Shown in pieces: positions 455 through 63,356 of a DNA stretch of 64,000 bases; positions within the stretch are counted from its first letter, which is position 1, and each line of letters starts with the position of its first letter. This DNA comes from Eledone cirrhosa. Its lineage: Eukaryota. The notes beneath the pieces were generated by a model. The model did not search any database and was not told the origin of the DNA. It saw nothing but the letters and a program-made list of their open reading frames with translations. Location: assembly GCA_964016885.1 (NCBI GenBank), contig OZ024741.1, positions 151,280,001 through 151,344,000 of the forward strand, given 5' to 3'. A program made the position numbers and the translations under genes.

Positions 455-650
455 AGTTTTAATGTAGATGAGATTCTACAGGACTAGAACTGTTTCATTC
501 ATTAGAAATCATCAGGGATTCCTGATGATTTCTAATGAATGAAACAGTTCTAGTCCTGTAGAATCTCATCTACATTAAAACTGTTATACTCTGCTATGTA
601 TTGAGTACCTTACTTACTGAGGTTACCTCCGATTCAACCCGGAATAACGT
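455..650 (+). mobile_element. Fold-back PLE-like short element, HHR family A, in (TA)n
   Basis: 455-582 is a near-perfect palindrome centred at ~518. The unique tail 583-650 ends in (TA)n. The same family recurs at 5727-6095, 14125-14300 and 39119-39197. Confidence 0.75.
517..565 (+). ncRNA. Type I hammerhead ribozyme (family A)
   Basis: gattc-CTGATGA-t ttc taat gaa t-GAAA; stem III ACAG/CTGT; predicted cleavage after GTA (560); gaatc closes stem I. A mirror core lies on the minus strand at 471-520. Confidence 0.8.
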
Positions 651-1095
651 ACATATATATATATATATATATATATATATATATATATATATATATATAT
701 ATATAGAGAGAGAGAGAGAGAGAGAGAGAGAGAGAGTGAGTGAGAGGTGGGAGGGCGTTAAAGAATCGATCCCAATAGAAGATGCAGCAAAAGAGATGAA
801 TGGAGAAAGAGAAATGTGAATGGGGTCATAAAGGTTTGCGGAAGAGAGGCAAAAGAAGTAGAAATTGAAAAGAAGTAGAAGTGGGAGAGATAATTGAAGA
901 GTGACGGAATTCGCTAACATATAGCCATGCCTCCATCTCTCTCTCTCTCTCTCTCTCTCTCTCTCTCTATATATATATATATATATATATATATATATAT
1001 ATATATATATATATATATATATATATATATATATATATATATATATATATGCAAAAGAAACCAAAGAACGCTTACATACTCAAACAGTCTTTATT

Positions 1096-1142
1096 CACTT
1101 ACAATGTTTCATCCTCACCTTTTGGCAGAATTCCTCAGAGCC
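1096..1142 (-). ncRNA. Hammerhead ribozyme in PLE-like 3' tail
   Basis: Reverse complement reads ggct-CTGAGGA-attctgcc...gtgaggat-GAAACATTGTA-agtg. The tail runs into the (TA)n at 968-1050. Confidence 0.6.
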
Positions 1143-1577
1143 TAATAAATACAGTATTGAGTATAAGTTCCACAAAAACCTAGTGTCACGAATAATCAGA
1201 ATAAAGATAGGGAGATCGGAGATGGCGAACAAAGAGGTGCATGCTGGTGTGGTTAAGCATCTCTGCTAAATGCCAAAGCATAAGCGGATTCAACAAGATG
1301 AAGATATATTAGATGGCACACAAAAACAAAGAATGTAAAAGCAAAAAATGCAAAAGCATAACAAAAATACATAAAAAATACAGACAAAGATTAAAACATA
1401 ATATAAATTATAATAAAGTAATAACAAATAAAAAATATAAAAATAATAAAGATATTAAAATAAAATAAAATAAAGTAATAAAAAAAAAATATAAAAATAA
1501 TAAAGATAATAAATTAAAATAAAATAAAGTAAAATAATTAAAAAATTAATAAAATATAATGAAAAATAAATAAATAA

Positions 1578-1755
1578 TTGTTTTTACTTTTAGCACAAGG
1601 ACAGCAATTACCCAGTGCATTACTGTTACTTTATTTTATCGACCCCGTAATGATGAAAGGCAAAGTTAACCTCGGCGGGATTTGAACTCAGAATGGCAAG
1701 GGCCGCAACTCTTTGCTGCAAAGCATGTCGTCCGACTCTCTACCGAAACTGCCAA
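1578..1755 (-). mobile_element. tRNA-derived SINE (major family)
   Basis: Reverse complement has A-box-like TGGCAGTTTCGG, B-box GTTCAAATCC and a central gcctttcatc...ggggtcgataaaataaagt domain. About 11 copies in the window. Confidence 0.85.
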
Positions 1756-1912
1756 TCCCGCCTTTTATAAAAATAATAAAATAATAAAAGATAAGATAAT
1801 AAAATAATATAATAAAATTAAAAATTAAAAAGAATTAAAAAGATTTAAAACATAAAAAAATTAAAAAATTAAGAAATTAAAAAAAAAGTTAATTTTTTTT
1901 TTTTTCATTAAA

Positions 1913-1995
1913 AAAATAAAGATAAAAAATAAAGATAAAAAATAAAGATAAAAAATAAAGATAAAAAATAAAGATAAAAAATAAAGATAAAAAAA
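1913..1995. repeat. 13-bp tandem repeat (aaaaaataaagat)n
   Basis: About 6 direct copies visible. Confidence 0.8.
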
Positions 1996-59368: not shown

Positions 59369-59426
59369 ATACTATGATCATTTCCATGACCGGGCTCCGC
59401 ATGAATCCGGTGACACCATCAGGCAC
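59369..59426 (-). ncRNA. Degenerate hammerhead in a short (TA)n-flanked element (59317-59522)
   Basis: Reverse complement: gtgc-CTGATGG-...ccgg...ccgg...-GAAATGATCATA-gtat. Confidence 0.5.
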
Positions 59427-59568
59427 TCGAAATACAACACGTGAATGCAATAGGTAAAATCCATGGGGCTGAAAATCGAGACCCGAGGGCGACCGCTATT
59501 CTGTTCCTTCAACCTCAGCCGGATATATATATATATATATATATATATATATATATATATATATATAA

Positions 59569-60960
59569 TACGGGTTAAGAGGCGAGGCTGTGTGGTTACT
59601 GAAAACGAAGTGTAGAAGGTAATCAGGGCACAAACAAGAGGAGAAAAATTTCCCTTCATCAGCTGTTTACTACGGATCTTGGATGTTTCGGCGCTTAAAG
59701 CAGAACATCGATCTGTAGCGCGCCCATGGCCTTTTATCCATCAAAAGGCCCTGAAGGAAAGAAGTGATAGTGGAGAGGAAGGAAGAAAGAAAAAGGGATG
59801 AAAAAAAGGAAACAAAGATAAAAAACGAAGTAAACATACCGATAGAAGGCGGAACACAGGACAATGGCACATGTATGTAAGTAACCGAAGAGTAAATAGA
59901 TCAAGTTATACCAAGCCGATGGGTATAAGCCCGGTGGACGTAAAAATAGAGGAGGTAGGTTTTCCGTGGCAATTCTGAGTAAAGTGAGTGTAGAGAGAGA
60001 GAAAGACGGAAAAACCGGAAGTGAGAGGGAGTCGCGGACATAGGGAGTGAGTAGGAGAAGGGAAAGTTAATCCGGAAACAAGAAAATGGATAGGGAGGAA
60101 GAGAGAGAGAGAAAGCGAGAGGGGGGGGGGGGGCTGAGAGAGAGGGAGAGAAAGAGAGAGAAAAAAGGAGGCAGTCAGTCGATCTGAGAGCGTGGTGGAA
60201 CATAAGTCCGGCCAGGGACAACAAATCGAGCAAGACAGGTAGATAGAAGGTCACAACAGTAACTACAAATATACGGGTTAGGATGAGAGGCTGTGGTTAC
60301 TGAAAACGAAGTGTGAGAAGATATATCACACACACACACACATATACAGACACACACATACATATATATATATATATAAGATTATCAGATAAGACTGGTG
60401 ATCCTGTGAGTGCTCAGGTGAAGGTTTAGAGTAACAAATCACGTCTTGTCTGATAATCTTATATATATATGTATGTGTGTGTCTGTATATGTGTGTGTGT
60501 GTGTGATATATCTTCTAACACTTCGTTTTCAGTAACCACAGCCTCTCATCCTAACCCGTATATTTGTATTTACTGTTGTGACCTTCTATCTACCTGTCTT
60601 GCTCGATTTGTTGTCCCTGGCCGGACTTATGTCCCACCACGCTCTCAGATCGACTGACTGCCTCCTTTCTCTCCCTCTCTCTCAGACCCCCTCTCTCTCT
60701 CTCTCTTCCTCCCTACGCATTTTCTTGTTTCCGGATTAACTTTCCCTTCTCCTACCTCTCTCTCTCTCTACCCCTCTTACTCACTATATATATATTCATT
60801 TATTATGGCTATTGGTGAGCTTTGTTACTCTAAACCTTCACCTGAGCACTCACAGGGTCACCAGTCTTGTCTGATAATCTTGTGAGTACGCAGGGGAGAC
60901 TCCATAGTAACAAGGCTTAGCCATAATAAATAAATAGTTAAACTTTACTTTGATATTGAG
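59569..60960. mobile_element. Composite PLE-like region with direct and inverted pLTR-like repeats
   Basis: Direct repeat 59569-59618 / 60272-60320; inverted pair ~60050-60395 / 60445-60756; degenerate HHR 60866-60914 (cttgt-CTGATAA...GAGAC..GTA-acaag). Confidence 0.55.
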
Positions 60961-62054
60961 TTTTCATTCTTATATCCGTCAATATTTCACGTACTCTCAG
61001 GACTTGAATAGTGATCCCCAACCCCCAGTTATCAATTTGTCAGAATCATCCTCCCTCCCACCGCAGTTTTTATCCTAACTCCACCCTTACCTGCTTATTG
61101 AATTTTGCTAATCTATCTCCGGCGAAATGTTATTATAAGTGATTCATATTGATAAAGCAGCTGGAGAATCTAATAATAATTTTATTTTATATTAAAACAT
61201 TATATATGACAAAAGAAGAACATTACAAGAAAACCCATATTTACGAACGTTCACTTTACAATTACTGATTTCCCAAGCCCCCTTCCCCCCATTATTGCCC
61301 CCTCCTATAATTTGAGAGCCGAGAGTGCCACCAAACTCTCCTCCATCCTATGTCTATCGCACAAAACTCTCTTTTAATCCCCCTCTCTGTATCAACTAAA
61401 CCAAACTCTACCCCTCTCTACACCTACCACGACACCGCCTCTCTTATCCCACTTTCTATAACTAAGACTAATACACTCTCTCACTCTCAATAGATATCTA
61501 CACTTAACCCTCCCAATCCCTCTCTAAATATCAATCACCTTTAAACCCTCCCCTCTCTATATCCATTACATGGCACTCTCTCATTATCCATTTCTGTATA
61601 TCAACAACCACCAACTTCTCCCTCTCTTTATATCTAATACAGGGAATACTGTATTATATATATCTACTACACAAAACTCTCTTCAAATTCCTCTCGCTAA
61701 GTCAATAATCATTAATCTCTCCCCCTCTGTATATCTACTATACGGAAATCTCTCCCAATCTCCTCTCTATATCAATGACCACCAAACTCTCCCCCTATAT
61801 ATATCAACCATGCAACATACGCTCCCAAATTCACACAAATATGTATGTATTTGTATATCGACACACACACACACACACACACACACACACACACACACAC
61901 ACACACACACACACACACACACACACACACACACTCATATATATATATATATATATATCCAGGGAGTGCAACAGGAAGTTACTGTAGGTTCGCCCTGGTG
62001 AGCACTCGATGTTTAGGTTCATGTCAGTGCCGCGGTGTAGAGCGAGACAGAGTG

Positions 62055-62320
62055 TAATATAATAATAATACAAGGGCGATTAGTTAAGCCTTCACTACGC
62101 TTATTAATTGGTGACGTACGTTTCGCTATTGATCAGCTCAAAGTTCGATCTGACCCGACTCTAGAATCAAAAGCTCGTCGGACCTCTGCTGGTGTAATGA
62201 CGGAATGCACATATATATATTCATTCTGTCGAACCTTGAGCTGATCAATAGCGAAACGCGCTTCACCAATCAAATAAACGTAATGAAGACTTAACTAATC
62301 GTCTTTGTTTTATTATATTA
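62055..62320. mobile_element. Family N fold-back element with HHR 62110-62184 (-)
   Basis: Reverse complement: ggt-CCGACGA-gct...agc-GAAACGTACGTC-acc; partial + arm at 62229-62315. Confidence 0.7.
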
Positions 62321-62399
62321 TCATATATACATACATACATATGTATATATATATATATATATATATATATATATATATATATATATATATATATATATA

Positions 62400-63356
62400 T
62401 ATATATCATTGAAATGTTGTCTATGATTGCCTATACAATATAAGGTTAGATAGGTCTTTCTGCTAGCCATCGCATTCCTGTGATTTATGAGTATCCACAA
62501 TAATGTTGGAGCTACGAATTGTGGCAGGTGATAAAGACTTCTATAAACTATATATATATAAGCAGAAGGGATATTCAATTTGTTGGTAATTCAACAAATA
62601 TAAATGTTTATAACTGATTCAGAGCACTATCCAGGGATAACTTGAACCGTTAAGGTATATTATCCTTGGTTATGTCAAAAAACACACTTCGTATTTTATC
62701 TGATGATAGCGTACCAAAATGTTGGTACCCTTGACATATATATAATAGAATAAATATGGTTTTATATATATAGTTTCCATTATTTAATATTATTGTATAT
62801 ATACATATATATATATATATATAACGAAGGAAATGGATAAGGAACCAGATGGACCATAACGCACCAAAGTACTCAATACATAGGGTAGTAGAGTGGGTAA
62901 TAGGAACGAGTAGGACCCCGACGGCTGAGCTCAAGCCGTTTCGACGGCTAATTCTGGACGCAATGATATTAAATAAATGGAAACTATATATATAAAACCA
63001 TATTTATTCTATTATATATATTTCAAGGGTACCAAAATGTTGGTACGCTATCATCAGATAAAATACGAAGTGTGTTTTTTGACATAACCAAGGATAATAT
63101 ACCTTAACGGTTCAAGTTATCCCTGGATAGTGCTCTGAATCAGTTATAAACATTTATATTTGTTGAATTACCAACAAATTGAATATCCCTTCTGCTTATA
63201 TATATATAGTTTATAGAAGTCTTTATCACCTGCCACAATTCGTAGCTCCAACATTATTGTGGATACTCATAAATCACAGGAATGCGATGGCTAGCAGAAA
63301 GACCTATCTAACCTTATATTGTATAGGTAATCATAGACAACATTTCAATGATATAT
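62400..63356. mobile_element. ~390-bp inverted repeats (family G-related, HHR 62692-62752 + and 63005-63065 -) enclosing a family D tail (62821-62960)
   Basis: Arms are near-identical; left core has GACA, right core has GAAA. Confidence 0.75.

Follow-up and report, generated by a model that had tools for sequence, protein, structure and literature searches.

Head-to-head hammerhead ribozymes in an Eledone cirrhosa genome window, probably left by Penelope-like retrotransposons

We analysed a stretch of 64,000 nucleotides (nt) of the Eledone cirrhosa genome (contig OZ024741.1 of assembly GCA_964016885.1, positions 151,280,001 to 151,344,000; hereafter the window), which holds about 35 recognisable hammerhead ribozymes, about half of them intact. 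Judged from their sequence context, these hammerheads appear to be mostly the ends of (TA)n-targeting Penelope-like elements (PLEs), largely of the Hydra clade. Our preferred reading, which we hold to be probable, is that the hammerheads of the pseudo-long terminal repeats (pLTRs) of such elements, together with those of one tandem repeat without an open reading frame (ORF), have been left as short head-to-head pairs, both DNA strands likely having been cut and primed from two fixed sites on one RNA. The hammerhead set is real, explained, of a known kind and of unusual scale.

Insertions with two fixed ends

The insertions are head-to-head pairs in (TA)n. Each of the five families examined has two fixed 3' ends that lie 60-340 nt downstream of the core and abut TA, the short and long ends being at +69/+185 in family Y, +107/+190 in Z, +60/+129 in A, +104/+262 in F114 and +282/+340 in D. 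Both ends could be classed in 51 of 61 head-to-head pairs, and 45 of these 51 combine one long with one short end (P = 9e-9 against 0.5), while 10 more pairs have one end unclassed. Within family D, the combination is long plus short in six of eight pairs.

The two arms of a pair tend to share variants. Opposite arms of D show 1.3 differences per 160 nt (25 comparisons) against 6.3 between loci (564 comparisons), and those of F114 are identical in 7/9 pairs against 7.2 differences between loci. At the same time, arms often lack overlap or are not nested (at least eight Y pairs and several Z, A and F pairs), and in some non-nested pairs the short arm extends further 5' than the long arm, so that neither arm is a copy of the other. 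Shared variants and non-overlapping arms together fit twin priming on one RNA by the Penelope reverse transcriptase (RT). In the twin priming of L1 elements, an inversion results from two primers on one RNA, the second of which anneals by microhomology at variable sites; here, by contrast, both starts are fixed and the arms often overlap.

The 5' ends are distributed differently from what self-cleavage of the template would leave. Just one of 99 lies within 6 nt of the hammerhead cut site, with no pile-up there, and cleaved RNA was for this reason rejected as the template of reverse transcription. Another 19 of the 99 fall at the 5' edge of the core, a share partly selected by the search patterns, and in unselected DNA 11 of 35 do so. 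These core-edge ends were also considered as splice junctions, given AG acceptor-like sites in Y and A, and this was rejected because truncated copies share no upstream exon. The A4 core letters of family Y, CAGAAGA (3981-4030; also at L132-L161, L-numbers denoting loci elsewhere in the genome), themselves double as an AG acceptor-like site. The insertions show hallmarks of PLEs, namely 5' truncation, an inverted copy at the 5' end and a tail at one of the two ends; such elements typically leave truncated inverted copies that are tailed at a single end (PMC8557442).

In the mechanism that we propose, a GIY-YIG endonuclease would open the TA run, and two RT subunits would start on opposite strands at the long and short sites of one RNA, which is likely uncut or re-ligated. 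Synthesis of both cDNAs would stop prematurely, in many cases on reaching the 5' edge of the ribozyme or, for the long cDNA, at the short site, and the aborted products would then be joined head to head. With both start sites a short distance downstream of the ribozyme, nearly all stubs include a hammerhead, hence the high density. Family D likely uses the same PLE machinery as a circular or multimeric RNA, which would give rise to tandem arrays. The Poseidon element PAc of Anolis offers a biochemical parallel, in that it nicks and extends both strands of AT-rich DNA in vitro, with two internal RT start sites bounding the tail, a predicted dimer and unprocessed, uncut RNA as template (PMC11167929). 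It belongs to a different clade, and the available text of that study gives no genomic one-of-each rule.

To a more far-reaching version of this reading we give slightly less than even chances. In it, the genome would hold 200,000-300,000 hammerheads, at about 10 times the density reported for axolotl, and these would record how Penelope elements integrate: a dimer of RT-endonuclease subunits would use two fixed sites of one RNA molecule to prime both strands of the target, with the downstream subunit blocked by the upstream one, and by rolling around circular retrozyme RNA that dimer would also deposit entire tandem arrays in a single step. A young Hydra family with the A4 core would have done so more than 16,000 times. 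The literature raises the questions how PLEs make tandem and inverted insertions and whether the PLE enzyme mobilises animal retrozymes (PMC8557442; 10.64898/2026.07.22.740005); both become testable by counting, since young insertions whose two ends are fixed number tens of thousands in this genome.

An alternative that we consider unlikely derives the mirror arm from the first cDNA folding back, or from later DNA repair or gene conversion, and not from a second priming on the RNA. Arms are often identical where they overlap, many apexes are near-perfect hairpins with loops of 0-20 nt, and positions 62406-63351 show that whole units can undergo local inverted duplication. Fold-back or conversion may cover some pairs, but not the non-nested Y, Z, A and F pairs described above, whose arms lack overlap or whose short arm is the more extended one towards 5', and a second cut or priming site is required to give a fixed second end next to TA.

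Several points weigh against twin priming by PLE machinery. The one-of-each rule is broken in 6/51 pairs (four long-long, two short-short), with the long class set leniently for Y and F114. Pairs of family Z are mixed, with 0, 0, 2, 3, 7 and 16 arm differences, the arm comparison for Y is invalid, its window having run beyond the short end, and shared arm variants can also be explained by gene conversion or fold-back copying. The preference of long arms for ending near the short site (within -10..+25 of it in 12 of 56 cases, against 2 and 4 in equal flanking windows) speaks for the proposed mechanism, but the +26..+61 control window is censored by the 35-nt minimum hit. The in vitro Poseidon study, in its available text, saw no strand difference in the use of start sites (PMC11167929). 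Nine window families (K, B, C/C', O, H/L, M, N, J and I) have no ORF link in the loci examined, no D-specific partner ORF was identified, and our clade names are based on motifs and not on trees.

Autonomous elements and a tandem retrozyme

Among loci picked for cores spaced 2-5 kb apart, we found full-length PLEs of about 3-5 kb. Three of them (L112, L117 and L122, the last with an inverted 5' stub) have the order pLTR-ORF-pLTR with the same hammerhead in both pLTRs, which agrees with the statement in an earlier sequence-only reading of the window that PLE pLTRs carry hammerheads. At L112, L122 and L100, a single ORF encoding RT and a GIY-YIG endonuclease (EN) lies between hammerhead-bearing pLTRs. 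The ORF P0001 has the motifs RW, DKT, YRDD, CxCx5C, CxxC..E and N..CxH and no CCHH by eye; the insertions have TA flanks, consistent with the (TA)n target of the Hydra clade. The protein of one retroelement here matches an Argonauta protein at 38% and by eye resembles Hydra-1_Obim.

The Hydra clade, Hydra-1_Obim included, is described with the same diagnostics, among them RW, DKT, the CxCx5C linker, CxxC/CxH around EN and GIY-YIG at the C terminus, and likewise with (TA)n insertion, a canonical hammerhead and an inverted 5'-truncated copy with a tail at one end only (PMC8557442); the supplement of that work contains a (TA)n-inserting octopus member. The families described there are few and below 3 kb, with tails of 30-40 nt, whereas here several families reach 3-5 kb, stubs number 10^4-10^5 and tails measure 58-158 nt.

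Seven window families are linked to ORFs by adjacency, five of the Hydra clade and two Neptune-like. Hydra ORFs adjoin families A (L100), F (L033, where a Hydra EN lies upstream of the copy), Y (L041, L124, L125) and Q (L163/164, L170), and more weakly E, for which the ORF at L024 is on the inverted side. Family P lies downstream of a Neptune-like ORF in 8/11 other ORF copies, and G follows such an ORF in 4/11 other loci. The Neptune-like linker CX2-5CxxC before a C-terminal GIY-YIG was found at L055, at L175 and at 57831-58289 of the window; it is common to Neptune and Nematis, and the motif alone does not separate those clades. The window's own broken ORF (57700-58490) is Neptune-like, with 11,292 first-look candidates in the genome, and Pfam returned for the Neptune-like ORF a weak RVT_1 match only. 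Linking each family to an autonomous PLE ORF, as proposed in the sequence-only reading, thus succeeded for seven families and failed for the nine named above. Its view of the hammerheads as a radiation of independent short retroelements holds as regards the radiation and the Penelope link; most copies, on the other hand, are 5'-truncated ends of full-length PLEs, and an ORF-less unit is shown for D only.

Family D consists of non-coding tandem monomers with one type I hammerhead each. The 478-bp units stand in tandem, and the window array shows no RT similarity; by its structure D is a non-LTR (long terminal repeat) retrozyme in the sense of PMC7229834, with a unit slightly above the retrozyme monomer range of 150-450 bp. 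Animal non-LTR retrozymes (PMC7229834; 10.64898/2026.07.22.740005) are similarly ORF-less tandem monomers of low GC with one type I hammerhead each; D differs in its monomer of about 478 bp and in arrays that show the PLE insertion signature of inversion, two ends and TA target. Li, Clavereau & Pollet 2026 (10.64898/2026.07.22.740005), whose argument is based on phylogeny, proposed that arrays grow by unequal crossover. The predicted circle fold of D reaches -146.8 against -101.8+/-5.3 kcal/mol, a difference inflated by TA runs.

That D is the pLTR of the neighbouring Neptune-like ORF was considered and rejected, since D follows this ORF in 1/11 other copies and P in 8/11. D may possibly form part of the Hydra family Y, which it adjoins at L041, L124, L125 and L144, but Y is very common and both target TA. 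At L041:4339-4376, a 5'-truncated Y copy is fused head to head to a 5'-truncated D copy, with no TA between them and a short end on both; this may be an insertion from two templates, which would connect D with a Hydra enzyme. Beside the D array at L125 (6300-8350) stands a second ORF-less tandem hammerhead array with a 310-bp period, seven units and an inverted stub.

That self-cut circles are the replicating form of most families, each an independent, short and non-autonomous retrozyme, seems to us improbable. D would suit this explanation, being ORF-less, tandem, young and strongly folded in prediction as a circle, as would the second array with the 310-bp period and the nine families unlinked to ORFs. 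However, all seven families for which long copies were found run into PLE ORFs, and the 5' ends are scattered truncations instead of cut-site ends.

Hammerhead census and predicted activity

Hammerheads were sought with our own type I descriptor script (CUGANGA, GAAA and UH core plus helices I-III; threshold score >=12), which gave 18 matches in the window, whereas local dinucleotide shuffles averaged 0.03 (maximum 1 in 30 shuffles). The match at 63407 is a low-complexity false positive, and the other 17 are intact type I cores. Earlier forms of the descriptor gave 14 matches against 0.125 in shuffles and, with an exact core, 16 against 0.04; with one core change tolerated there were 29 against 0.5, of which four are low-complexity false matches. 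Shuffled controls therefore do not match the observed hit density, and the type I descriptor found no match on the complement or the reverse of the window. Since the bare heptamer CTGANGA is merely about 2-fold enriched (50 against 22.5), the hammerhead signal resides in the helices.

About 18 variant or decayed cores stand at positions that had been noted before (Table 1). Self-BLAST and family BLAST group the window's hammerheads into about 15 sequence clusters, with mutual kinship among 5608/40653/7662/62692, between 4178 and 48207 and between 45497 and 62110, in keeping with the earlier count of about 30 cores from more than 10 families. The mirror copies also claimed for several cores were mapped in many families as palindromic or head-to-head pairs. 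The earlier reading had overlooked family Y (3981+) and family Q, present as three 3' halves (4562, 6340 and 62824); full copies of Q have a U3-A8 core, and its three window copies are cut in loop II. The odd families G, O and Q resolve as ordinary type I hammerheads, and a crude order scan at the previously noted sites found no convincing case of the scrambled type-SGC order (GAAA strand before CUGANGA strand) seen in Naiad. Rfam hammerhead models do not describe minimal PLE variants. They gave no match in the window at gathering score, and at E<=10 no hammerhead was among the 150 of 451 matches listed, where miRNA models on palindromes and microsatellites dominate. The GC content of the window is 27-57%, with many (TA)n runs.

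The inferred radiation extends across the genome. Exact patterns, with the same pattern read backwards as control, counted 83,770 cores of the E/F superfamily (control 2), 16,532 of Y, 15,932 of A and 10,718 of D (controls 0), or 126,952 for the four patterns combined; 3' halves of Q number a further 52,348. One E subfamily has 4,022 cores. In each of two sets of pattern-picked loci, 28/30 passed a helix test. We also sampled 59 pieces of 10 kb at round coordinates of the 3.0-Gb assembly, 36 of them from the four largest contigs. These gave 43 strict matches against 1.25 in shuffles (66 against 6.25 with variant cores) and a stratified estimate of 213,000 hammerheads (bootstrap 136,000-298,000), with a score threshold that passes over minimal families such as G and P. 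Hydra-like coding remains occur in 10/59 pieces, and the window is about 3.6-fold denser in hammerheads than the sample. Counts of about 9,000 in Xenopus tropicalis and of 126,247 in the 28-Gb genome of axolotl (PMC7229834) were obtained with different descriptors.

The minimal hammerheads of metazoan PLEs in PMC4209133 are likewise of type I with a short palindromic helix III, fall into many families per genome, include U3-A8 covariants, and are mostly solo or truncated with opposite-strand pairs 100-700 bp apart. Their counts of 2,000-9,000 per genome compare, not strictly, with at least 126,952 by four exact patterns here. Distinctive of our set are the A4 core of family Y, not mentioned in the available text of that study, and the frequent U10.1.U11.1, a natural hammerhead variant (PMC3088659) that opens helix II in 18/51 sampled matches. 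Hammerheads in PLE ends and their pairing on opposite strands are already known from publications, as are TA targeting and an octopus Hydra element. A literature search outside subscription journals found neither a hammerhead census of a cephalopod nor the one-of-each rule nor an A4 family, and the available text of PMC13282606 does not mention hammerheads. The hammerhead variants (A4, C4, U3-A8, U10.1.U11.1, long loop II) make the genome a natural library of very large size, and its intact-looking Hydra ORFs are usable for biochemical assay.

Helix III is exclusively palindromic in 13/17 intact cores (ACUAGU, AUAUAUAU and ACGAUCGU types), so that a partner copy is needed. Dimeric PLE hammerheads were reportedly treated by Lunse et al. 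in 2017. The dimer-type anatomy of PMC4209133 is matched by these 13 cores. In a head-to-head pair, the antisense arm is transcribed first, whichever strand is read. With 300 nt of upstream context, the predicted probability of stem I is <=0.01 in 12/12 non-array intact cores, owing to the mirror arm in nine of them, and several fold poorly even alone; the five array cores of family D keep 0.5-0.66.

The expectation that any transcript crossing the region on either strand could be cut is not supported, with half of the cores mutated, 13 of the intact ones in need of a partner, one 5' end in 99 at the cut site and sequestration by the mirror arm predicted. Published activity is low: PLE hammerheads cut poorly alone and need dimers or PLE protein (PMC4209133, PMC11167929), the Poseidon one cuts only with protein present (PMC11167929), and 1/9 frog dimers cut (10.64898/2026.07.22.740005). 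Together with the fold predictions, this makes general cutting of crossing transcripts unlikely. Most genomic copies are predicted to be silent, being mutated, dimer-dependent or locked in a hairpin with the mirror arm, and the tandem D units, as double hammerheads, would be the likeliest candidates for cleavage. Long double-stranded RNA, a possible substrate of editing or silencing, would be a likelier outcome of mirror pairs than the cutting of host transcripts. A role on host RNA, in which the motifs shape the transcriptome by cleaving intronic or read-through transcripts of either strand, has very little probability in our view, for although the genome holds at least 126,952 cores and the 64 kb 17 intact ones, no host gene is shown in the window, the predicted stem III probability of the monomer is zero, and both the predicted sequestration and the low published activity speak against it.

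Mapped features and other repeats

Table 1. Hammerhead-bearing and related features of the window
Feature	Position	Strand	Remarks
Family A head-to-head pair	450..652		intact core 522+ (U10.1.U11.1); mirror arm truncated at stem I; short end +65, long end +130
Family K, old copy	1060..1250	-	variant core 1138-, stem I 3 bp
Family B, decayed copy	3534..3831	+	decayed core 3643+
Family Y pair	3864..4049		Hydra-clade pLTR; CAGAAGA (A4) core 3981+; long and short arms without overlap
Family C palindrome	4076..4273		CCGACGA (C4) variant cores 4165- and 4184+
Family Q palindrome	4562..4756		3' half of U3-A8 hammerhead; Hydra-clade; more copies 6340-6511, 62824-62959
Family E palindrome	5515..5702		intact core 5614+
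Family A pair	5727..6097		intact cores 5787-, 5968+; short end +60, long end +129
Family F palindrome	7410..7769		intact cores 7509-, 7670+
Family A variant pair	14129..14296		variant core 14247+ (A6G)
Family P, solo pLTR of Neptune-like element	38050..38290	+	eroded core 38188+
Family D pair	38287..38756		intact core 38411+; mirror truncated
Family O	39400..39620	-	variant core 39586- (G8C, by eye), long loop II
Family E palindrome	40423..40763		intact cores 40525-, 40661+
Family D retrozyme array	40791..44037		five ~478-bp units minus, inverted 1.4 units plus; six cores, five intact (41144-, 41678-, 42145-, 43089-, 43717+), 42623- with stem III change; long end left, short end right
Family L/H, eroded copy	45470..45610	+	variant core 45497+, long helix II; related half copy 44092-44171 minus
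Family G palindrome	46244..46624		variant core 46478+ (16.1 changed; intact in other family copies) and mirror; pLTR of Neptune-like element
Family M	47050..47340	-	intact core 47328-, loop II ~85 nt
Family N	47690..47900	-	variant core 47872- (G8A)
Family C' palindrome	48031..48297		variant cores 48115-/48213+, both C3A; intact copy at L173
Family B copy	57260..57557	+	intact core 57369+
Broken 5'-truncated Penelope-like ORF and 3' untranslated region	57700..58690	+	RT thumb end, Zn-finger linker, GIY-YIG; Neptune-like
Family D, older pair	58820..59254		variant cores 58860-/59017+ (G8A)
Family J	59330..59435	-	variant core 59422- (A9G)
Family I	60795..60934		two strongly decayed cores, 60871+ (several changes) and mirror (by eye)
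Family H palindrome	62062..62316		variant core 62181- (C4); stem I lost
Family F63 unit, duplicated inverted around Q copy	62406..63351		variant core 62700+ (A14C); intact core 63057-

At 62406-63351, the entire two-armed F63 insertion is present twice in inverted orientation, at 98%, on either side of a Q stub. The tail of the Neptune-like family P directly abuts a D arm at two sites (38280-38295 and 58800-58830); the D arm ends about 6 nt before the predicted cut site at 38287 and within about 2 nt of it at 58820.

Other repeats surround these features. An ORF remnant with a restriction-like endonuclease, which we take to be a Dong/R4-type non-LTR element, lies on the minus strand at 15500-16450 between (TTA)n and (TAT)n runs. 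A long interspersed element of L1/Tx1 type (APE endonuclease and RT) with ORF1, and several decayed relatives, occupy 16688-22304 and 27500-32650. A tRNA-derived short interspersed element (SINE)-like repeat, which resembles the octopus OK SINE, is abundant (1570-1810, 7760-7950, 10850-11260, 26645-26768, 37760-37896, 40014-40144, 53180-53640 and 55135-55255), some copies standing in 200-bp tandems. Long inverted repeats without a hammerhead core, comprising nested palindromes and terminal-inverted-repeat elements, are found at 33001-33864, 34246-35346, 49863-52407 and 60051-60755, and some of them may represent additional PLE families whose stubs break off downstream of the core.

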